A DNA stretch of 8,003 bases, taken from the IMG/VR virus record IMGVR_UViG_2660238346_000006, positions 1-8,003 of that record; one strand, written 5' to 3'. This document shows, one piece after another, positions 1-8,003 of this stretch. The position numbers and the translations under genes are program-made. The notes below the pieces were generated by a model. It did not search any database, was not told where the DNA came from, and saw nothing but the letters and a program-made list of their open reading frames with translations. This DNA is from a virus. Its lineage: Duplodnaviria; Heunggongvirae; Uroviricota; Caudoviricetes. Within the stretch, counting starts at the first letter, position 1, and the number at the start of each line of letters is the position of its first letter.

Positions 1-67
1 CGCTTTACGTGCGACATATTCCCGTCCATGAACCCTTCACCACACCCCAAAGTTCACTTTGGTTATT

Positions 68-82
68 GCGCTTTGTCAGCGC
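68..82 (-). promoter_or_regulatory. Putative nutL boxB hairpin (P22-type, GACAA loop) on the leftward transcript
   Basis: Plus strand reads GCGCTTTGTCAGCGC, so the minus strand reads GCGCTGACAAAGCGC: a 5-bp GC stem with a GACAA loop, matching the P22-type boxB as I recall it. It lies left of the OL-like operators, where a pL transcript would carry nutL. Confidence 0.5.
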
Positions 83-149
83 CGTAGATTCATATTCGAA
101 TCGTTGTATATTCACCGCCCTGGTGAGTAGTGCGTCCTGCTGATGGGTG

Positions 150-270
150 AACTTTATCGGAATGATAAATTAATGGCAATAGCAAAATGATAAATTCTCT
201 TGGTTTTCAAATATCGTATTGATTCTTATGGTGTTTTATTTTGTTGTAGGAATTCGACAGGATAAATAAA
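150..270. promoter_or_regulatory. Putative OL/pL operator region with repeated TGATAAAT-type half-sites
   Basis: ATGATAAATT occurs at 162-171 and again at 187-196; TTTATC-N5-GATAAA inverted repeat at 154-170; GATAAAT at 261-267. The same motif family recurs in the cI/cro intergenic region (2621-2694). No sizeable ORF here. Confidence 0.45.
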
Positions 271-373
271 GAGATTTGAGGGAGATCTGGATTGCGTTGT
301 TTAGCAAGTTGTATCTATCAGTTTTTCAATAAATACAATCGATTATGTGTTTTTAGGTGGGCGAACGTGGGGC

Positions 374-399
374 AAAGAAAACCCGGCGCTGAGGCCGGG
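374..399 (-). terminator. Rho-independent terminator closing the leftward cI / toxin-antitoxin-chaperone operon
   Basis: Minus strand reads CCCGGC-CTCAGC-GCCGGG followed by TTTTCTTTG, starting about 10 nt after the stop of the SecB-like gene (409): GC-rich 6-bp stem, 6-nt loop, T-tract. Confidence 0.6.
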
Positions 400-408
400 T
401 GGGGAATT

Positions 409-813
409 TCACTTATTACTGTTCGTTTCCATGGGATTGGCCAAGAAATCAAAATAAGGCAGAGTGAACCTACCAAGGTTTGACATGAGGATAATTTGCT
501 CGGCATATGTTTTTATATAGGGATATGCCATATTGGGAGCAATGGACCTTACCTCATATGATTTTGCCATTTCATGAGAAAAATCATCTTCTGACCGGAA
601 GTCAAAGTCGTATGTGATGTCCATCTCAAGCCTGCCTTCAATAGTTACGGAGGCAAAATATCTCACTCTAAATAGCTTTGAATCCTTCACATTAGTGTAA
701 AGTTCATTATTTAGATTAACGGTTGTTTTTATGGATTTTTTTGCTGTTGAATCGCCTTCTAGCCGTGTCATAACCAAGCGTTCAACTTTTTTGCTAATGA
801 GTTCAATTTTCAT
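409..813 (-). CDS. SecB-like chaperone (third gene of the TAC-type module), 134 aa
   Basis: C-terminal segment APNMAYPYIKTYAEQIILMSNLGRFTLPYFDFLAN parallels the conserved E. coli SecB segment ([35 protein letters not shown], recalled from memory). Size is right for SecB-like chaperones. Start ATG overlaps the upstream antitoxin stop (ATGA at 810-813). Confidence 0.7.
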   Translation of the reverse strand: MKIELISKKVERLVMTRLEGDSTAKKSIKTTVNLNNELYTNVKDSKLFRVRYFASVTIEGRLEMDITYDFDFRSEDDFSHEMAKSYEVRSIAPNMAYPYIKTYAEQIILMSNLGRFTLPYFDFLANPMETNSNK

Positions 814-1466
814 GGTAATAATAAGTAATTTCCGTCAGAAGTCATTTCGTCATTCAGGTTGCTAGCCGCTGTGAAACTTGATGACAAGTTACTTATCAAA
901 GAAAAAACATTCCGTTTTTCTTTGCATTTGCCGTTACCCCTTACTGCGCTGAACAACATTTTTGAAAAGTAAGATTCTGTAGCCTTTTCAGCGAAATAAG
1001 CAGAAGGTGATGTGACGGCTGACTCACACCGAGCAATGACGCTAGTCATGGCTGTTTCTTCTTCCTCTGCGTCAACTAGGCTCCATTCAATTGCGCTCAT
1101 ATCTTGAATTAAGATATCTGCAGGAATTCCAAGTCCGTCATGTAGTCTACGGATCATTGAAAGACTTAATGGACGCTTACGATTTAAGACCTCAGATACT
1201 TTAGATGCTGAGCCAATGTATTGTTTCATATCGGCATAAGAGAGGCCTTGTTGATCCATACGGAACTTGATTGCTTCTATGGGATCTGGCTTGTCCATAG
1301 GGAACTCGCGTGACTCATAGTGCTCGATAAGCAAGCCTAGTAGTTCAAACTCATCAAAATCTTCAGTTCCAGGTTGTAAATCACTAGACGCAAGTTCAAT
1401 GAGCCTTTCCATAGCTGCAGCATGCTCTTCACTATTTTTAATGATGCGCCAGCTAGTTCGATTCAT
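810..1466 (-). CDS. higA: HigA-type antitoxin (XRE-family HTH) with ~90-aa C-terminal extension, putative chaperone-addiction region, 218 aa
   Basis: Residues ~95-130 (GSASKVSEVLNRKRPLSLSMIRRLHDGLGIPADILIQD) match the C-terminal HTH of E. coli HigA (GSKSMVSRVLSGKRKLTLEHAKKLATRFGISPALFID, recalled). The ORF then continues ~90 aa beyond where HigA normally ends. ATGA overlaps with higB upstream and the SecB-like gene downstream. Confidence 0.75.
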   Translation of the reverse strand: MNRTSWRIIKNSEEHAAAMERLIELASSDLQPGTEDFDEFELLGLLIEHYESREFPMDKPDPIEAIKFRMDQQGLSYADMKQYIGSASKVSEVLNRKRPLSLSMIRRLHDGLGIPADILIQDMSAIEWSLVDAEEEETAMTSVIARCESAVTSPSAYFAEKATESYFSKMLFSAVRGNGKCKEKRNVFSLISNLSSSFTAASNLNDEMTSDGNYLLLP

Positions 1467-1750
1467 TTAAGCCTCCACTTGTCGTACTCTGCATGAGTTC
1501 CAACTCTTTCAACTATGACCATTCCTGCCTGGTAAACAACTTGGACAACGAGCCGATAGTTATTGCCTTTTATATTAAAAATTACCCTGTTGTTAGGAAG
1601 GAAGTCGGCAGAATTAAATCTATTCCGTATGTCTTGAGTCGTTTTCCAGTTTTCTCTTATCACTTCATCATACCAAGAGTCTAAAGCCCCCTTGGCCTGA
1701 TTGTGCTTCTGGCTAAAACTGTGAAGCTTCTCTACGTTTAAGACCTTCAT
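1463..1750 (-). CDS. higB: HigB-family toxin (ribosome-dependent mRNA interferase, RelE superfamily), 95 aa
   Basis: FNIKGNNYRLVVQVVYQAGMVIVERVGTHAEYD aligns with E. coli K-12 HigB FNVGGNELRVVAMVFFESQKCYIREVMTHKEYD (recalled). Toxin-first gene order is typical of HigBA. Stop overlaps antitoxin start. Confidence 0.8.
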   Translation of the reverse strand: MKVLNVEKLHSFSQKHNQAKGALDSWYDEVIRENWKTTQDIRNRFNSADFLPNNRVIFNIKGNNYRLVVQVVYQAGMVIVERVGTHAEYDKWRLK

Positions 1751-1762
1751 AATCCGATTTTG

Positions 1763-1804
1763 TTCCCTCTTTGGGAATTATAGATTCATTTCCCATAAAG
1801 GGAA
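1763..1804. promoter_or_regulatory. Twin palindromes TTCCC-N5-GGGAA upstream of higB; candidate operator/promoter of the TAC module
   Basis: TTCCCTCTTTGGGAA at 1763-1777 and TTCCCATAAAGGGAA at 1790-1804 lie 13-54 bp upstream of the higB start, inside the 136-bp cI-higB intergenic gap. Type II antitoxins commonly autoregulate through palindromic operators. Confidence 0.45.
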
Positions 1805-1886
1805 TCTGTATTTTTATCCAGAAATGCTATGTACATCACCCAAACGTCTCTTCAGGCCACTGGTTACCAGCTATGTGACGATGAAG

Positions 1887-2591
1887 TCACGAACTTTTCA
1901 GCCACTCCCTTGCCTCGATGTCATCCAGATGGCGAGATTGCTTCAGAATACCAGCTACATACTCCACCTTTGCTACTTGATGATAAGGCAACGTTATAGG
2001 CCTGTGATCCTGGTTAATGCTTGTAAATTGGTATTCTCCATCTCTGTCATAGCCAAGAACCTTAATCATGTTGTGTCCTTCAACGGTTCTGACAAACACC
2101 TCATCACCCGGGAATACTTTGGTGTTAGGCTCAATGAGTACATATTCTCCTGATTTTATTCTGGGCCACATGCTGTCTCCTTTCACACGAAGACCAAAGG
2201 CATCTGGATCATCGCTATAAATTTTGAGCCACCCATCGCGCTCTTCGGTCATCTCGATGGCACCATCAACACCAAGAATTGCCTCACCAACCACGCGCAC
2301 TAACCCTTTTCTTACCTGACCGACAAAAGTTAAAGAATCTGAGAATGATGCAATTGGTGTTACATCATGTACCAAATCAAGCCACCCATTAGGTAACCCA
2401 AGCGCGGCTTCAAATTTTCTTGCTAGTTTATCCCCTATGTTTCGAGTGCTTTTTTCACCGGAGACTTGCGTGAGTTGAGAAGGGCTAACCCCAAGCTTAT
2501 CGGCAAAGCTTGCATTAGTGTTACCCGCGATTTTTTTATGCTCATCTAGCAAAAACGCCAGATTCGATTTGCGAATATCTTTGTTTTCCAT
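1887..2591 (-). CDS. cI: CI-like prophage repressor (N-terminal HTH, C-terminal S24/LexA-like autopeptidase), 234 aa
   Basis: HTH-like N-terminus (FADKLGVSPSQLTQVSG). C-terminal domain has the S24 catalytic-Ser motif (VKGDSMWPRIKSGEYVLIEP) and a downstream Lys (NMIKVL). Divergent from the cro-like gene across an operator-rich spacer. RBS GAGGGA upstream of ATG. Confidence 0.85.
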   Translation of the reverse strand: MENKDIRKSNLAFLLDEHKKIAGNTNASFADKLGVSPSQLTQVSGEKSTRNIGDKLARKFEAALGLPNGWLDLVHDVTPIASFSDSLTFVGQVRKGLVRVVGEAILGVDGAIEMTEERDGWLKIYSDDPDAFGLRVKGDSMWPRIKSGEYVLIEPNTKVFPGDEVFVRTVEGHNMIKVLGYDRDGEYQFTSINQDHRPITLPYHQVAKVEYVAGILKQSRHLDDIEAREWLKSS

Positions 2592-2704
2592 CTCACAATT
2601 TTCCCTCTATTTAGCAAATGGATAAATACGCAATATGATAAATTTACATTGCGGTTGATTTATCAAAATGGTAAAGTTGTTCTGTGTGATAAACGGAGGC
2701 ACTA
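2592..2704. promoter_or_regulatory. OR-type operator / divergent promoter region (PRM-like leftward, PR-like rightward)
   Basis: 113-bp spacer between divergent cI and cro-like genes containing GATAAAT (2621-2627), inverted TGATAAAT (2636-2643) and ATTTATCA (2658-2665), and TGATAAAC (2687-2694). Motif shared with the OL-like region at 154-267. Confidence 0.6.
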
Positions 2705-2938
2705 ATGAGTAATGAACTACTACGCTGGCGAAAAGAGGCTTCTAGCGAGGAATGGAAGCGACTCGCCGCATTAGCGAAAACTTCAGTTGGCTATCTTGAC
2801 CAGATTGCATATGGATTTCGAAGAGCTTCCCCTGATAAAGCGAATGCAATCGAAGAAGCTACTCGTAATTTCACGGGTTATAAACCTGTGAAAAAGGAAA
2901 ACCTAGTGTTCGTATCGCGTAGAGCATCGGCTGCATAA
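2705..2938 (+). CDS. cro: Cro-like small DNA-binding protein, 77 aa
   Basis: First rightward gene after the operator region, strong RBS (GGAGG) before ATG, small basic protein. Assignment is mainly positional; family membership not verifiable by eye. Confidence 0.6.
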   Translation: MSNELLRWRKEASSEEWKRLAALAKTSVGYLDQIAYGFRRASPDKANAIEEATRNFTGYKPVKKENLVFVSRRASAA

Positions 2939-2976
2939 GTAACACCGCTATTTTCACAATGGACATTCGTCCTACG

Positions 2977-2991
2977 TCGCTGACAAAGCGA
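2977..2991 (+). promoter_or_regulatory. Putative nutR boxB hairpin (GACAA loop), with possible boxA-like CGCTATTTT at 2946-2954
   Basis: TCGCTGACAAAGCGA: 5-bp stem with GACAA loop, near-identical to the minus-strand element at 68-82. Located between cro-like and cII, where lambdoid nutR sits. Confidence 0.5.
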
Positions 2992-3076
2992 GTCCCAATA
3001 TATCTGACCAACTAAGGCCATATGCGTTTCCACGCATACCTTTCAACTAACTATTCACTATTGGAAATATTAAGAA

Positions 3077-3442
3077 ATGACACAAACAAGTTACAGCAAA
3101 CTATCACAGCGTGACGTTGATCGCGCAGAAACAGATTTACTCATCAACCTATCAACGCTTACCCAGCGCGGTCTGGCAAAGATGATTGGCTGTCATGAAT
3201 CGAAGATAAGCAGAACGGACTGGAGACTTACCCAGCGCGGTCTGGCAAAGATGATTGGCTGTCATGAATCGAAGATAAGCAGAACGGACTGGAGATTTAT
3301 TGCTTCGGTCTTGTGTGCTTTCGGAATGGCATCAGACATCAGTCCGATTAGCAGGGCTTTTAAGTATGCGCTTGCTGAAATCACAAAGAAAAAACGCCCG
3401 GCGGCAACCGAGCGTTCTGAACAAATCCAGATGGAATTCTGA
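3077..3442 (+). CDS. cII: CII-like transcriptional activator carrying an in-frame 23-codon tandem duplication, 121 aa
   Basis: C-terminus [18 protein letters not shown] matches the lambda CII C-terminus as I recall it. Position between cro and O. Internal repeat [23 protein letters not shown] occurs twice consecutively. Confidence 0.85.
3158..3295 (+). repeat. Perfect 69-bp direct tandem duplication (2 copies) inside cII
   Basis: 3158-3226 and 3227-3295 are identical (cttacccagcgcggtctggcaaagatgattggctgtcatgaatcgaagataagcagaacggactggaga). Flanking bases differ on both sides. 69 bp = 23 codons, so the frame is preserved. Confidence 0.9.
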
Positions 3443-3474
3443 GGGAATTACTGGATCAATCCACAGGAGTAATT

Positions 3475-3621
3475 ATGACAAAACAACTCAGTCCTTACCA
3501 GGACAAAATTCACAAACACATACTACGTGATCGCTTCCTGTCCAGCTTCAAGCAGCCTGGTCGATTCCGGGCTGGGTTGGAAAAAGTGAAGCTGATGCAG
3601 AAGGAGAAAGGTCATGAGTAA
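3475..3621 (+). CDS. Small hypothetical protein (48 aa) between cII and O; below the ORF-track length cutoff
   Basis: ATG at 3475 preceded by GGAG (7-nt spacing); translates [48 protein letters not shown] with stop TAA 3619-3621, overlapping the O start. Hand-translated. Confidence 0.35.
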
Positions 3622-4519
3622 TCTTGCAACCGTAACACATTTAAGGCCTTCACAACGGCCTGTGGAGCGTCGTGTGGCAGAAGTTGAAGATGGTTATACC
3701 CGTCTTGCAAATGCCCTGTATGAAGAGCTTATCGGCGCAGATTTAACGAAAAATCAGAGCAAGGTTGCCCACGCCATATGCCGTAAAACATACGGCTACG
3801 GTAAAAAGATGGATCGCATCTCTGATAGTCAGTTAGCTCAAATTACCAGGCTGCCAAGACAGAAGGTAAACAAGGCCAAGAATGAGCTTATCGCGATGAA
3901 GGTTATCCTTCGCGAAGGCCAGCAAATCGGGCCTAACAAGAACATCGAGGAATGGCAAATCGAAGGGTGTCACTACTCTGGTGATAATGTCACTGCATTG
4001 GTGACAAAAAGTGTCACCAAAACGGTGACAGCGCTGTCACCAAAACAGGGACACACAAAAGAAACTATTACAAAAGAAAAAAGAAAAGATTATTCGTCCG
4101 AGAATTCTGGCGAATCCTCTGACCAGCCAGAAAACGATCTTTCTGTGGTTAAACCGGATGCTGCAATTCAGAGCGGCAGCAAGTGGGGAACAGCAGAAGA
4201 CCTGACCGCCGCAGAGTGGATGTTTGACATGGTGAAGACCATCGCACCATCAGCCAGAAAACCGAATTTTGCAGGGTGGGCTAACGATATCCGCCTGATG
4301 CGTGAACGTGACGGACGTAACCACCGCGATATGTGTGTGCTTTTCCGCTGGGCCTGCCAGGACAACTTCTGGTCCGGTAACGTGCTGAGTCCGGCCAAAC
4401 TCCGCGACAAGTGGACCCAGCTCGAAATCAACCGTAACAAGCAACAGGCAGGCGTGACAGCCAGCAAACCAAAACCCGACCTGACAAACACTGACTGGAT
4501 TTACGGGGTGGATTTATGA
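3614..4519 (+). CDS. O: Replication initiator protein O (lambda O family), 301 aa
   Basis: C-terminal half ([39 protein letters not shown]...[11 protein letters not shown]) matches lambda O as recalled. Contains iteron-like repeats plus an AT-rich tract mid-gene. Stop overlaps P start (ATGA). Confidence 0.9.
3968..4090. repeat. Putative replication origin: four iteron-like repeats with TGTCAC...GTGACA symmetry followed by an AT-rich tract, inside O
   Basis: Repeats begin near 3968, 3989, 4012 and 4034 (about 21-23 bp apart): TGTCACtactctgGTGATA, TGTCACtgcattgGTGACA, TGTCACCaaaacGGTGACA, TGTCACCaaaacagGGACAC. Followed by an A-rich stretch 4055-4090 (acaaaagaaactattacaaaagaaaaaagaaaag). Same architecture as ori-lambda, different iteron sequence. 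Confidence 0.6.
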
Positions 4520-5217
4520 AAAACATCGCCGCACAGATGGTTAACTTTGACCGTGAGCAGATGCGTCGGATCGCCAACAACATGCCGGAACAGTACGACG
4601 AAAAGCCGCAGGTACAACAGGTAGCGCAGATCATCAACGGTGTGTTCAGCCAGTTACTGGCAACTTTCCCGGCGAGTCTGGCTAACCGGGACCAGAACGA
4701 ACTGAATGAAATCCGCCGCCAGTGGGTTCTGGCTTTCCGGGAAAACGGGATCACCTCGATGGAACAGGTTAACGCAGGAATGCGCGTAGCCCGTCGGCAG
4801 AATCGACCATTTCTTCCATCACCCGGGCAGTTTGTTGCATGGTGCCGGGAAGAAGCATCCGTTATCGCCGAACTGCCAAACGTCAGCGAGCTGGTTGATA
4901 TGGTTTACGAGTATTGCCGGAAGCGTGGCCTGTATCCGGATGCAGAGTCTTATCCGTGGAAATCAAACGCGCACTACTGGCTGGTTACCAACCTGTACCA
5001 GAACATGCGGGCCAATGCGCTGACTGACGCGGAATTACGGCGCAAGGCTGCCGATGAACTGACCTGTATGATAGCACGAATTAACCGTGGTGAGACGATA
5101 CCTGAACCAGTAAAACAACTTCCTGTCATGGGCGGCAGACCTCTAAATCGAGCACAGGCTCTGGCGAAGATCGCAGAAATTAAAGCTAAGTTCGGACTGA
5201 AAGGAGCAAGTGTATGA
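4516..5217 (+). CDS. P: Replication protein P (DnaB helicase loader), 233 aa
   Basis: Sequence [44 protein letters not shown]... is essentially lambda P as I recall it. Translationally coupled to O and ren. Confidence 0.9.
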   Translation: MKNIAAQMVNFDREQMRRIANNMPEQYDEKPQVQQVAQIINGVFSQLLATFPASLANRDQNELNEIRRQWVLAFRENGITSMEQVNAGMRVARRQNRPFLPSPGQFVAWCREEASVIAELPNVSELVDMVYEYCRKRGLYPDAESYPWKSNAHYWLVTNLYQNMRANALTDAELRRKAADELTCMIARINRGETIPEPVKQLPVMGGRPLNRAQALAKIAEIKAKFGLKGASV

Positions 5218-5504
5218 CGGGCAAAGAGGCAATTATTCATTACCTCGTGGCGCATAAGAACTTCTGTGCACAGGACGTTTCCGCGGTAACAGGCGCAACC
5301 GTAACCAGTATAAATCAGGCTGCGGCTAAAATGGCGCGGGCAGGAATCCTTGTCATTGATGGTAAGGTCTGGCGAACGGTGTATTACCGGTTTGCTACCA
5401 GGGAAGAACGGGAAGGAAAGGTGAGCACGAACCTGATTTTTAAGGAGTGTCGCCAGAGTGCAGTGATGAAACGGGTATTGGCGGTATATGGAGTTAAAAG
5501 ATGA
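5214..5504 (+). CDS. ren: Ren protein (lambda ren homolog), 96 aa
   Basis: MTGKEAIIHY...VTSINQAAAKMARAG...VWRTVYYRFATREEREGK...KRVLAVYGVKR closely matches lambda Ren (96 aa) as recalled. Start overlaps P stop. Confidence 0.85.
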   Translation: MTGKEAIIHYLVAHKNFCAQDVSAVTGATVTSINQAAAKMARAGILVIDGKVWRTVYYRFATREEREGKVSTNLIFKECRQSAVMKRVLAVYGVKR

Positions 5505-5528
5505 CCATCTACATCACTGAGCTTGTAA

Positions 5529-5560
5529 CAGGCCTGCTGGTAATCGCAGGCCTTTTTATT
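5529..5560 (+). terminator. Putative rho-independent terminator downstream of ren (tR2-like position)
   Basis: CAGGCCTGC-tggtaatc-GCAGGCCT followed by TTTTTATTT: GC-rich 8-9 bp stem and T-run. Lambda has tR2 just downstream of ren at the start of the nin region. Confidence 0.5.
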
Positions 5561-5589
5561 TGGGGAAGAGTAATTGGAGGCTTTAAGAA

Positions 5590-5805
5590 ATGAGTACGAT
5601 AGCTGAGCTTGTCAGGGCTAATTTTCGTGAAGAGTTGGTGCGTTGGTATCGGTATCGTTCATCGTCCAGTTTGCCGCTTGATGAGTTGTATGAGCATTCA
5701 CCTGCCGCACGACGCTATCCGCGTGACCGTGTTCTTCGACGGTTGTTCAAACTCAACAATGAGTTTCAGCGCAACAGAATTATCCGGAGTCTGGATTTAA
5801 AGTGA
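5590..5805 (+). CDS. Hypothetical nin-region protein, 71 aa
   Basis: ORF with GGAGG 9 nt upstream of ATG; charged, helix-like composition. Preferred over the overlapping alternate-frame ORF 5609-5800, which is Cys/hydrophobic-rich and lacks an RBS. No recognised family. Confidence 0.4.
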   Translation: MSTIAELVRANFREELVRWYRYRSSSSLPLDELYEHSPAARRYPRDRVLRRLFKLNNEFQRNRIIRSLDLK

Positions 5806-5815
5806 AGGAGTGAGC

Positions 5816-6052
5816 ATGAGCGACCTATCATTAACCCAGCCAAAGCTAAAAGAATGTCCGTTTTGCGGCGGTAATGCTCGTCTGTGGGTTGAGGCCGGAA
5901 TAAATATTGATGTGTGGGGCTATGCAGAATGTGACCTCTGTGAAGCCAGGGGGGCATGGGCACCATCAGTTGCTGCGGCGGCTGAAAAATGGAACCGGAG
6001 AGCAGGAGATGAAGCAAACCTTTCTGCTTCGCAACGAAGCAATCAGAAATAA
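5816..6052 (+). CDS. Lar-family restriction alleviation protein-like (CPFCG zinc-ribbon), ~78 aa
   Basis: KECPFCGG near the N-terminus and EKWNRRA near the C-terminus match the Lar-family pattern as I recall it. ATG at 5816 has AAGGAG 5 nt upstream; the ORF-track start at 5810 is a GTG two codons earlier. Confidence 0.55.
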   Translation: MSDLSLTQPKLKECPFCGGNARLWVEAGINIDVWGYAECDLCEARGAWAPSVAAAAEKWNRRAGDEANLSASQRSNQK

Positions 6053-6455
6053 CGCCATAGACGCCATTCTCTCACTACCCATCGACGACAAGTCACCCCA
6101 CGAAGTCCACGTTAAAGAACCCAAGCGCAGCAAAGCGCAGAATGACCGTATGTGGCCGATGCTGAACGATGTTTCGCGTCAGGTGCTATGGCATGGTCAA
6201 CGGCTGGCGCCGGAAGACTGGAAAGACCTGTTCACTGCCCTGTGGCTTAAGACCAAAAAACTGGAGCAACGAAGTGTGCCTGGTATCGACGGTGGCGTTG
6301 TCATGCTTGGTGTGCGTACCAGCAAAATGCGAAAGGCCAACATGACTGAGCTTATCGAAATCATGTTCTGGTTCGGCTCAGAGCGCAACGTGCGGTGGAG
6401 TGATGACTCCTGGCGAGAGTATGAATGGTCACAACGAAAAGGGAAGGCTGCATGA
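6009..6455 (+). CDS. ninB: NinB (Orf family recombination mediator), ~148 aa
   Basis: KAQNDRMWPMLNDVSRQVLWHGQRLAPEDWKDLFTALWLKTKKL...MLGVRTSKMRKANMTELIEIMFWFGSERNVRWSDD resembles lambda NinB. Start chosen at ATG 6009 (GGAG upstream, lambda-like length) rather than the ORF-track start at 5907, which would add an N-terminal extension running through the Lar-like gene. Confidence 0.8.
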   Translation: MKQTFLLRNEAIRNNAIDAILSLPIDDKSPHEVHVKEPKRSKAQNDRMWPMLNDVSRQVLWHGQRLAPEDWKDLFTALWLKTKKLEQRSVPGIDGGVVMLGVRTSKMRKANMTELIEIMFWFGSERNVRWSDDSWREYEWSQRKGKAA

Positions 6456-6979
6456 CTATCAAATCAAATACGCCAGCACACGACAAGGACTGCTGGCAAA
6501 CGCCGCTTTGGCTTTTTGATGCACTGGATATTGAGTTTGGATTCTGGCTGGATTCGGCAGCGAGCGACAAAAATGCTCTGTGTGCTCACTGGCTAACTGA
6601 GGCCGACGACGCGCTCAATTCTGAGTGGGTAAGCCACGGTGCAATCTGGAATAACCCACCGTACAGCAATATCAGGCCGTGGGTGGAAAAAGCCGCTGAG
6701 CAGTGCATACAACAACGACAGACGGTAGTGATGCTTGTGCCAGAGGATATGTCTGTCGGATGGTTCAGTAAGGCTCTGGAGAGTGTTGACGAAGTTCGCA
6801 TCATCACTGATGGACGGATTAATTTTATCGAACCATCGACAGGGCTGGAGAAGAAGGGAAACAGCAAAGGTTCCATGCTGCTGATTTGGCGACCGTTCAT
6901 CAGTCCTCGACGGATGTTTACTACCGTATCCAAAGCGGCATTGATGGCGATCGGGCAGGGCGTCAGGAGGGCGGCATGA
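6452..6979 (+). CDS. Phage Dam-type DNA N6-adenine methyltransferase, ~175 aa
   Basis: NPPY catalytic motif ([10 protein letters not shown]); size and organisation typical of small phage N6-adenine methyltransferases. Start ATG 6452 overlaps ninB stop (ATGA); the ORF-track start at 6425 adds 9 codons. Confidence 0.8.
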
Positions 6980-7158
6980 GGCGACAGCGACGAAGTATCA
7001 CCGACATCATCTGCGAAAACTGCAAATACCTTCCAACGAAACGCTCCAGAAATAAACCCAGGCCAATCCCAAAAGAATCTGACGTTAAAACCTTCAATTA
7101 CACGGCTCACCTGTGGGATATCCGGTGGCTAAGACATCGTGCGAGGAAAACAAGGTGA
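6976..7158 (+). CDS. ninE: NinE, 60 aa
   Basis: [60 protein letters not shown] matches lambda NinE as recalled. ATG 6976 overlaps the methyltransferase stop (ATGA), in frame with ORF 6886-7158. Confidence 0.75.
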
Positions 7159-7298
7159 TTGACGTGATGATTTATTCGGGGCTATATTCCTCACGCGCCA
7201 GCAAAATCTGGCGTCGGGATTTGCACCCCGGATATTCAACCGCGACAGACACACGCCGCGAGCGTGTTTTTTGTTGTCGTAAGCACACGCACATCTGA
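7155..7298 (+). CDS. Small hypothetical protein at the ninF position, ~47 aa
   Basis: In-frame GTG at 7155 overlaps ninE stop (GTGA) with GAGGA upstream; alternative ATG at 7167. Product [47 protein letters not shown]; family not recognised. Confidence 0.35.
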
Positions 7299-7436
7299 AT
7301 TATGGTGGGGCGTATGGGGGAGCCGAAAGGCTCGCCGGTTGGTTGATCCGGTAGTGCAAACCCTGTACGTCTCACCACCCAAAGATTTGCACCTGACGGT
7401 GGTGATAGTTAAATTCATCAACCAGAGGGCGTTGTC

Positions 7437-8003
7437 ATGGCGACTCAAATTTCCGTTGAAACTCTTTCCCCAATTGCCTACAACCAGATCCCCGTAATTA
7501 CTACAGAATTATTGGCGCAATTGTATGGCACTGAAACAGTCAATATAAAAATGAATTTTTCCCGTAACTCTGCGCGATTTGTACAGGGAAAACATTTCTT
7601 TAAGTTGGAAGGGAATGAACTACGTGAGTTCAAGCACAGACTATCTTTAAGCGAGTCTGTTAGCCGCGAGGTAACAGAAAGTTACTCTGTGAAAATCGCC
7701 CGCAATGTTCGCTCCCTCATCCTCTGGACAGAACGAGGCGCAGCCCGTCACGCAAAAATGCTCGAAACTGATCAGGCGTGGGAAGTGTTCGAAAAACTGG
7801 AAGACTGCTATTTCAGCCAGTGCGAGAAAAATACTGGCAAACAAGAGAAGAAGCTCAACGGACTTTCCGCAAAAGAAGCAAACAGCCTTGTATGGCTATG
7901 GGATTATGCTAACCGTTCACAGGCATTATTCCGCGAACTGTATCCGGCGCTAAAGCAAATTCAATCGAACTATTCTGACAGGTGCTACAACTACGGTCAT
8001 GAG
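7437..8003 (+). CDS. ORF6N-domain / Roi-like DNA-binding protein, 5-prime partial (runs off the window end)
   Basis: Hand translation from ATG 7437 (GAGGG 8 nt upstream) is open to the end: [66 protein letters not shown]... The PVIT-x-LAxLYG-x-E-x-RN-x-RF-x-G-x-FFKL pattern is typical of ORF6N-domain proteins. Absent from the ORF track, presumably because it has no stop in the window. Confidence 0.55.

Follow-up and report, generated by a model that had tools for sequence, protein, structure and literature searches.

The stretch of viral DNA analysed here (8,003 nucleotides, positions 1 to 8,003 of the IMG/VR record IMGVR_UViG_2660238346_000006; the window in what follows) comes from a Shiga toxin (Stx)-converting lambdoid phage with H-19B-type immunity. 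Our subject is a pair of palindromes of the form TTCCC-N5-GGGAA, N being any nucleotide, that lie between the repressor gene cI and the toxin gene higB. The 2.3-kb stretch around them is 99.4-99.5% identical to the phages ST2-8624 and BP-4795 and to many Stx1a and Stx2a phages. On the minus strand the order is: OR operators (near 2610-2693), cI, a gap of 136 bp (1751-1886, from the cI stop at 1887 to the higB start at 1750), higB, higA, higC, an intrinsic terminator and OL/pL (Table 1). The terminator closes the cI-higBAC transcription unit before OL/pL, i.e. it takes the position of the immunity-region terminator of lambda.

Judged by its encoded proteins, the three-gene module is the toxin-antitoxin-chaperone (TAC) system HigBAC, which is already known. 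A prophage locus (L007) encodes WP_112844290, WP_112844289 and WP_112844288, which are exactly the HigB, HigA and HigC of Mets et al., and the window higBAC has 99.5% nucleotide identity to that of E. coli NT1F31. The tested residues of the chaperone-addiction (ChAD) tail, W128, F158, F188 and Y214, are all present in the window HigA, and the tested pocket residues Y39, N41, R49 and D71 are all present in the window HigC. The PADLOC matches for the module are PD-Lambda-2_A, PD-Lambda-2_B and PD-T4-9_C. HigC gave no Pfam or NCBIfam match and merely a chance-level match in a PDB search, and the HTH_3 match of HigA was weak and under the curated Pfam cutoff (20.9 vs 23 bits, E = 3.6e-4). Since Pfam and NCBIfam were empty for HigC and weak for HigA, the identity of these two proteins was settled via PADLOC and the NT1F31-type locus. 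The closest solved structures to the window HigA are those of K-12 HigA (the best PDB match) and Shigella HigA, and the helix-turn-helix (HTH) segment of HigA is nearly invariant across the family. We note that the deposited annotation of ST2-8624 (L135/L002; KU238070.1 12444-12863) has no coding sequence for higB and names HigA and HigC as hypothetical proteins.

The initial annotation described two near-identical 15-bp palindromes in the gap, and their coordinates and sequences are exact: on the plus strand, 1763-1777 reads TTCCCTCTTTGGGAA and 1790-1804 reads TTCCCATAAAGGGAA. The near-identity holds for the 5-nt arms, which are the same in both sites, and not for the centres, where the central 5 nt differ. 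The two sites are complementary to each other in 13 of 15 positions. Within each palindrome the half-sites are 10 bp apart around an A/T-rich centre, and the sites lie 27 bp from each other, centre to centre. Both fall 13-54 nt upstream of higB, with ends 13 nt and 40 nt from the ATG. There are exactly two matches to TTCCC-N5-GGGAA in the 8-kb window with one mismatch allowed; the chance expectation is 0.18 matches per 8 kb, and two or more matches occurred in 2 of 200 shuffles. The same two sites are the sole matches in the 50 kb scanned of the near-identical phage ST2-8624 (genome 62.8 kb), i.e. no further target site of HigA was found in that part of the genome.

On the minus strand the leader of higB reads …CTGGATAAAAATACAG-A-TTCCC-TTTAT-GGGAA-ATGAATC-TATAAT(T)CCC-AAAGA-GGGAA-CAAAATCGGATT-ATG. 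The palindromes are interlaced with a predicted sigma-70 core promoter: the candidate operators overlap its elements, and the same overlap is seen in E. coli K-12 and in distant relatives. The -35-like hexamer is TTCCCA (4/6) in many relatives. In a graded position weight matrix scan the combination TTCCCT-16-TATAAT takes 4th place among 39,860 positions of the minus strand; pL ranks just above it, and the candidates of the pR region are on its level. The leader of the predicted transcript would be about 20-22 nt long, and a weak ribosome-binding site precedes higB.

Table 1. Features at the cI-higBAC locus, with positions in the window; promoter elements, operators and transcription start are predictions.
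Feature	Position	Strand	Remarks
cI repressor	2591..1887	minus	H-19B type, S24 peptidase domain (Peptidase_S24)
Relic of lambda-type cI 3' end (…QWPEETFG*)	1836..1863	minus	old stop TGA at 1838-1836; left edge of cargo slot; downstream of present cI stop
A/T-rich CTG-N10-CAG element	1821..1806	minus	abuts -35, directly upstream of distal palindrome; candidate LexA box and/or UP-like element
-35-like hexamer TTCCCT (3/6)	1804..1799	minus	left arm of distal palindrome; 16-nt spacer to -10
Distal operator (O-distal, predicted)	1790..1804	minus	TTCCC-TTTAT-GGGAA on coding strand; left arm doubles as -35-like hexamer
-10 hexamer TATAAT (6/6)	1782..1777	minus	between palindromes; last T is first base of proximal palindrome; invariant in relatives
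Proximal operator (O-proximal, predicted)	1763..1777	minus	TTCCC-AAAGA-GGGAA on coding strand; begins at last T of -10, spans predicted start
Predicted transcription start	1770..1772	minus	5-7 nt after -10, from -10 position; inside proximal palindrome
higB toxin	1750..1463	minus	PF09907; 2 residues differ from validated WP_112844290.1
higA antitoxin, 218 aa	1466..810	minus	HTH DNA-binding domain and C-terminal ChAD tail; 1 residue differs from WP_112844289.1
higC SecB-like chaperone, 134 aa	813..409	minus	1 residue differs from WP_112844288.1
Intrinsic terminator after higC	400..381	minus	ACCCGGC…GCCGGGT and T-run; strong; upstream of OL/pL
pL	179->151		downstream of higBAC terminator

The conservation of the leader was investigated in 11 enterobacterial loci. 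These close relatives were collected singly by the encoded HigA protein, so that the set is unbiased by the DNA motif; the matches listed from a separate profile search of genome contigs were all distant relatives. All 11 loci agree in every one of the 25 nt of the four arms and the -10. In the same loci, identity to the window falls to 0.40-0.56 at the third codon positions of higB, to 0.65 in the N5 centres and the linker, to 0.17 in the 12-nt leader that follows, and to 0.21-0.63 in the sequence farther upstream. Substitutions occur in the N5 centres and the linker, never in the arms.

At least 80 distant HigA loci, spread over many phyla, came from the profile search; their HigB proteins are 29-69% identical to that of the window, and the figures for these distant loci, here and below, refer to the matches listed. 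Among the 65 loci with a placeable higB start, 50 show the exact motif TCCC-N5-GGGA in the last 100 nt before the gene. The regions upstream of higB hold 53 sites in 6.5 kb, as against 2 sites in 308 kb of flanks (Poisson P ~1e-143). In Oleispira, Motiliproteus and other gammaproteobacteria the twin layout is the same, i.e. a distal palindrome, 7 nt, and TATAAT fused to the proximal palindrome. A different arrangement is found in 20 betaproteobacterial loci, where a single GTCCC-N5-GGGAC fills the 17-nt spacer between TTGnnn and TAnnnT; the left arm is ATCCC in three of them, and a -10 matching in at least 4 of 6 positions directly follows the palindrome in 18. Judged by these layouts, the palindrome is part of the core promoter throughout the family.

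The reverse approach started from DNA only. A scan of 2.9 million IMG/VR viral contigs with the pattern TTCCC-N5-GGGAA-N7-TATAATTCCC-N5-GGGAA gave 31 matches. Each of them is followed, after 12 nt, by a higB homologue (68-100% identical). The next gene is higA in 31 of 31 cases, and a higC homologue was detected in all except one (L118).

The outer base of the half-site varies together with the predicted recognition helix of HigA. The helix SKVSEVL goes with the arms TTCCC/GGGAA, NRVYEVL with GTCCC/GGGAC, GRVSEVL with CTCCC/GGGAG, and SMVSRVL, the helix of E. coli K-12, with TTGCC/GGCAA.

The boundaries of the mobile unit can be read from E. coli genomes that match a 201-bp query around the gap. 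In 88 of these the full stretch with higB is present. In the remaining matching genomes the similarity covers cI and about 49 nt after its stop, a stretch that includes the relic of the lambda-type cI 3' end, and ends at window positions 1833-1838, past which they hold other cargo, e.g. DUF3024 and an Stk kinase in 933W-like prophages. One prophage locus (L005, 2846-2950) carries a true lambda cI (…VIASQWPEETFG*) that ends at a TGA equivalent to window 1838-1836, and higBAC comes next with an 85-nt leader. The length of 136 bp given for the gap by the initial annotation is right, and the comparison refines it: the TAC cassette owns 1751-1835 (85 nt), and the relic of a lambda-type cI 3' end takes up 1836-1863.

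In E. coli this cassette-specific leader travels with higBAC behind cI alleles of H-19B-type, 933W-like and lambda kind; in Klebsiella, Salmonella, Serratia and Citrobacter the repressors ahead of it are either S24-type or short and non-S24. One locus, in Serratia marcescens, has the leader and higBAC without an adjacent repressor gene. At least five repressor types thus precede the cassette with its promoter-operator element, which, as far as such comparisons tell, is part of the HigBAC cassette rather than of cI. A cargo of another kind is seen in a 933W-like prophage (L004, about 2480-2550) that shares the cI 3' end and has genes for DUF3024, a hypothetical protein and an Stk kinase. Its first cargo gene begins about 10 nt after the relic stop and, unlike higBAC, is preceded by a ribosome-binding site only, with no promoter-like leader. 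A cassette that brings its own regulated promoter would explain this portability, whereas the alternative cargo of L004 would have to rely on PRM. By the same token, the defence module in Stx phages need not follow the expression of cI.

Taken together, these observations suggest that the two palindromes are operators of an autonomous, HigA-autoregulated sigma-70 promoter, P_higBAC, that is owned by the HigBAC cassette; we put the probability of this reading at roughly 0.85. An autoregulatory operator upstream of higB and a promoter of the TAC module's own had both been proposed in the initial annotation, and the comparative data speak for both. As to the operator, the arms are invariant amid diverged neutral sites, the motif marks the upstream region of higB across many phyla, its outer base covaries with the HigA helix, and the DNA-only scan recovers higBAC operons only. 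As to the promoter, a perfect TATAAT is combined with a -35-like TTCCCT at 16 nt, the combination ranks among the highest of the minus-strand positions, the layout is as in K-12 higBA, and the element moves with the cassette from one repressor type to another and into the locus that has none adjacent.

In mechanistic terms, each palindrome would be bound by one HTH HigA dimer, since half-sites 10 bp apart suit one dimer. Two bound dimers would occlude the -35 and the start site, and the operon would be repressed. The repressing species could be HigA alone or, probably, the HigB-HigA or HigB-HigA-HigC complexes. If a phage protein titrates HigC, HigA would be lost and the promoter would derepress. 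In the lysogen, read-through from PRM could also feed the module. No minus-strand terminator was predicted in the gap between cI and higB, and as no terminator separates the two genes, PRM read-through from cI into higB is possible. The read-through of the cI transcript that the initial annotation suggested is plausible from this arrangement. An intrinsic terminator of the cI transcript was also considered for the palindromes and rejected, as there is no U-run on the minus strand and no terminator-like site in the gap.

Several points weigh against an autoregulated promoter at this site. HigA binding, the start site and repression are, for this phage, what we infer from comparative support. 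A strict consensus promoter scan called no minus-strand promoter in the gap; the strict scan missed it because the -35 matches in 3 of 6 positions and there is no extended -10, and the graded matrix and the comparative data were used in its place. The covariation of helix and operator is confounded by phylogeny, each variant being essentially one clade, so it is supportive and not proof. In the experiments of Mets et al. the cassette was driven by Ptet with 150 bp of native upstream DNA (bioRxiv 10.1101/2024.02.24.581848); as expression came from Ptet, their data are silent on native promoter activity. Lastly, the palindromes could pair with each other in the read-through RNA (1758-1810) and give a stable hairpin, whose interrupted stem of 14 bp is predicted at -17.7 kcal/mol (z = -4.3) and also appears in a fold of 161 nt.

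Such a hairpin would fit an RNA-level element: folded within transcripts that read through from cI (PRM), the palindromes would serve in processing, stability or attenuation instead of as DNA operators. Each palindrome also folds alone, at -5.8 to -6.6 kcal/mol, and in most enterobacterial relatives the distal N5 is T-rich and the proximal N5 is A-rich, so that the complementarity is kept. Distant loci with the twin layout, e.g. L027, lack this complementarity, however, and so does K-12. What follows the stems on the minus strand is AUGAAUC or CAAAAUC and not a U-tract, which speaks against a terminator. The betaproteobacterial palindrome lies between -35 and -10 and would escape transcription from the module's promoter, just as the distal site of the twin layout lies upstream of the predicted start. 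An A/T-rich centre between invariant arms fits protein contact and DNA bending, and covariation with a protein helix has no explanation at the RNA level. We therefore regard an RNA element as very unlikely. The sites could also be operators for another protein, such as phage cI or Cro or a host factor, given that they lie in the immunity region right after cI and next to a LexA-like box, which hints at host input. In addition, the higBAC leader contains at 1813-1820 a second copy of the right half of OR3 (TGGATAAA; 2619-2626); this recurrence is probably a coincidence, as it is a half-site only and the leader is also found with other cI alleles. Yet the annotated OR/OL 17-mers are of the type TTTAnC-N5-GnTAAA and are unlike TTCCC-N5-GGGAA, the palindromes accompany higBAC across unrelated repressors and also stand upstream of chromosomal higBA in many phyla, and their sequence tracks the recognition helix of HigA. 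Operators of a protein other than HigA are highly improbable on these grounds, and the particular candidates cI and Cro were rejected because the sites do not look like OR/OL and do not depend on the cI allele.

On the plus strand, the palindromes followed by TCTGTATTTTTAT might form an intrinsic terminator in antisense orientation that would halt rightward transcription into cI. A terminator scan flags 1790-1804 and the T-run as terminator-like on that strand, the stem between the two palindromes would strengthen such a structure, and the A-tract is conserved in the enterobacterial relatives. We consider this scarcely tenable: there is no convincing rightward promoter or gene upstream on the plus strand, the 5-bp stem is weak, distant relatives retain the palindromes without the A-tract, and both the -10 and the covariation would be left unexplained. 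As the region is a hotspot of cargo exchange, the palindromes might also be a product of chance or a scar of recombination without a regulatory role. The exchange junction, however, is at 1833-1838, 30 nt away from them, and the low chance expectation together with the conservation and enrichment statistics excludes neutrality. The probability of chance or a scar is practically nil, the idea being effectively refuted by the family enrichment, the DNA-only scan and the conservation.

The promoter P_higBAC, as predicted here, may receive a further input. The A/T-rich element next to the -35 might act as a LexA box, as an UP-like A-tract or as the two together. The LexA scores given here were obtained with a scoring matrix built from known LexA sites, which themselves score 12.9-27.0 bits on it. 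With this matrix the 20-mer at 1804-1823 that contains CTGGATAAAAATACAG is the top match in the window, at 16.2 bits, a value reached in 4 of 300 shuffles. The CTG-N10-CAG element is 71-94% conserved in relatives; TG-N10-CA is kept in register, and the outer C or G is lost in several (CTG to ATG, CAG to CAT). Scores are 16-18 bits for the variants from E. coli and Citrobacter, 7-12 for most of those from Klebsiella, Salmonella and Serratia, -2.3 for one variant (L123), and -8.0 for one cassette type (L108 and three identical loci), which has no box. A second LexA-like match, TACTGGATCAATCCACAGGA, is found at 3449-3468 between cII and the O gene; at 13.2 bits it is at the low end of the known sites and may be due to chance.

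A more far-reaching version of the model would make P_higBAC a dual-input defence promoter, with two HigA operators and a functional LexA box. LexA and HigA would then hold the module down in the quiet lysogen, DNA damage would boost it, and the loss of HigA after titration of HigC would derepress it. We consider this doubtful and put it forward as a speculation. If it were true, the boost on removal of LexA would coincide with the cleavage of cI that shuts off PRM read-through. Titration of HigC by the tail protein of an invading phage, followed by loss of HigA, would set off a burst of toxin through transcriptional feed-forward. On this model the 85-nt leader is a portable control unit complete in itself, and this could account for the placement of the cassette behind any repressor allele.

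The general picture of type II toxin-antitoxin (TA) autoregulation is unchanged by these results. What appears to be new is descriptive, namely the operator motif, its family-wide spread, the helix-linked variants and a cassette that carries its own control region. HigBAC is a validated system, yet its native control is undescribed in the literature searched: searches with the exact operator sequences gave no match, and a search on Stx, prophage and HigB gave solely a study of EDL933, which is without the cassette. The 85-nt leader with its -35, -10, two predicted operators and predicted start offers a testable map. The putative family-wide operator code TTCCC-N5-GGGAA, with the variants GTCCC, CTCCC and TTGCC, may be of use in annotating the promoters of HigBA and HigBAC modules and in designing orthogonal repressor-operator pairs.

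One other peculiarity of the window concerns cII (3077-3442), which contains an exact in-frame 69-bp tandem duplication at 3158-3295. This duplicates the HTH region and gives a protein of 121 aa. In close relatives cII has 297 nt, and the duplication in the window, which repeats a segment of 23 residues, could be genuine or could stem from the assembly.

Among known systems, the TAC locus of Mycobacterium tuberculosis (Rv1955-Rv1957, HigBA1 with a SecB-like chaperone) has the same kinds of components, i.e. a HigB-type toxin, an HTH antitoxin with a ChAD tail and a SecB-like chaperone. Its antitoxin reportedly binds a palindrome in the promoter, and a DNA-damage-responsive promoter is said to lie upstream. 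It differs in the sequence families of toxin and antitoxin, in the operator motif and in the promoter arrangement, and it is chromosomal and not prophage cargo. A review of TAC systems (PMC3581621) contains nothing on promoters.

In the cI-rexA-rexB region of lambda, too, a defence cargo occupies the slot that extends from cI to OL/pL, and L005 has higBAC where rexAB would be. In both cases two transcription inputs are possible, read-through from PRM and an internal promoter. The proteins are unrelated, however, and the higBAC promoter precedes the whole module and carries candidate operators. The internal promoter of lambda rex is not known to be under the control of its own product. The parallel with rexB drawn in the initial annotation is thus fair, as an analogy only.

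HigBAC of E. coli NT1F31 is essentially the same module; it too belongs to a lambdoid prophage and fills the slot downstream of cI there, and the 42-bp promoter-operator block of the NT1F31-type locus L007 is identical to that of the window. NT1F31 HigBAC is an experimentally validated anti-phage defence (Mets et al., bioRxiv 10.1101/2024.02.24.581848). The difference lies in the questions asked: that work dealt with the sensing of lambda gpV and with chaperone addiction, under expression from Ptet or PBAD, and the terms 'operator' and 'autoregulat' are absent from the text of the preprint, which does not describe the native promoter or operators (bioRxiv 10.1101/2024.02.24.581848).

The E. 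coli K-12 higBA locus (ygjNM) encodes a homologous PF09907 toxin and antitoxin, and its upstream region reads TTGCC-AATCT-GGCAA-CGGATGT-TATCAT-A-TTGCC-AATTT-GTCAA. As in the window, the distal palindrome provides the -35 (TTGCCA) with its left arm, the spacer is 16 nt long, and the second palindrome comes directly after the -10 (TATCAT). The half-sites are TTGCC/GGCAA with the helix SMVSRVL, as against TTCCC/GGGAA with SKVSEVL in the phage, the proximal site is shifted by 1 nt, and the proteins are 26-41% identical. K-12 higBA is also a two-gene chromosomal module without the chaperone, the ChAD tail or the prophage context. Primer extension gave a single promoter for this locus, lacZ fusions showed activity solely when the TA locus was absent and lost it in the presence of HigA, and the inverted repeats were named as putative binding sites (PMC2814082). 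The predicted architecture of P_higBAC is that of the autoregulated promoter-operators of type II TA modules with an HTH antitoxin, and K-12 higBA appears to be its closest counterpart.

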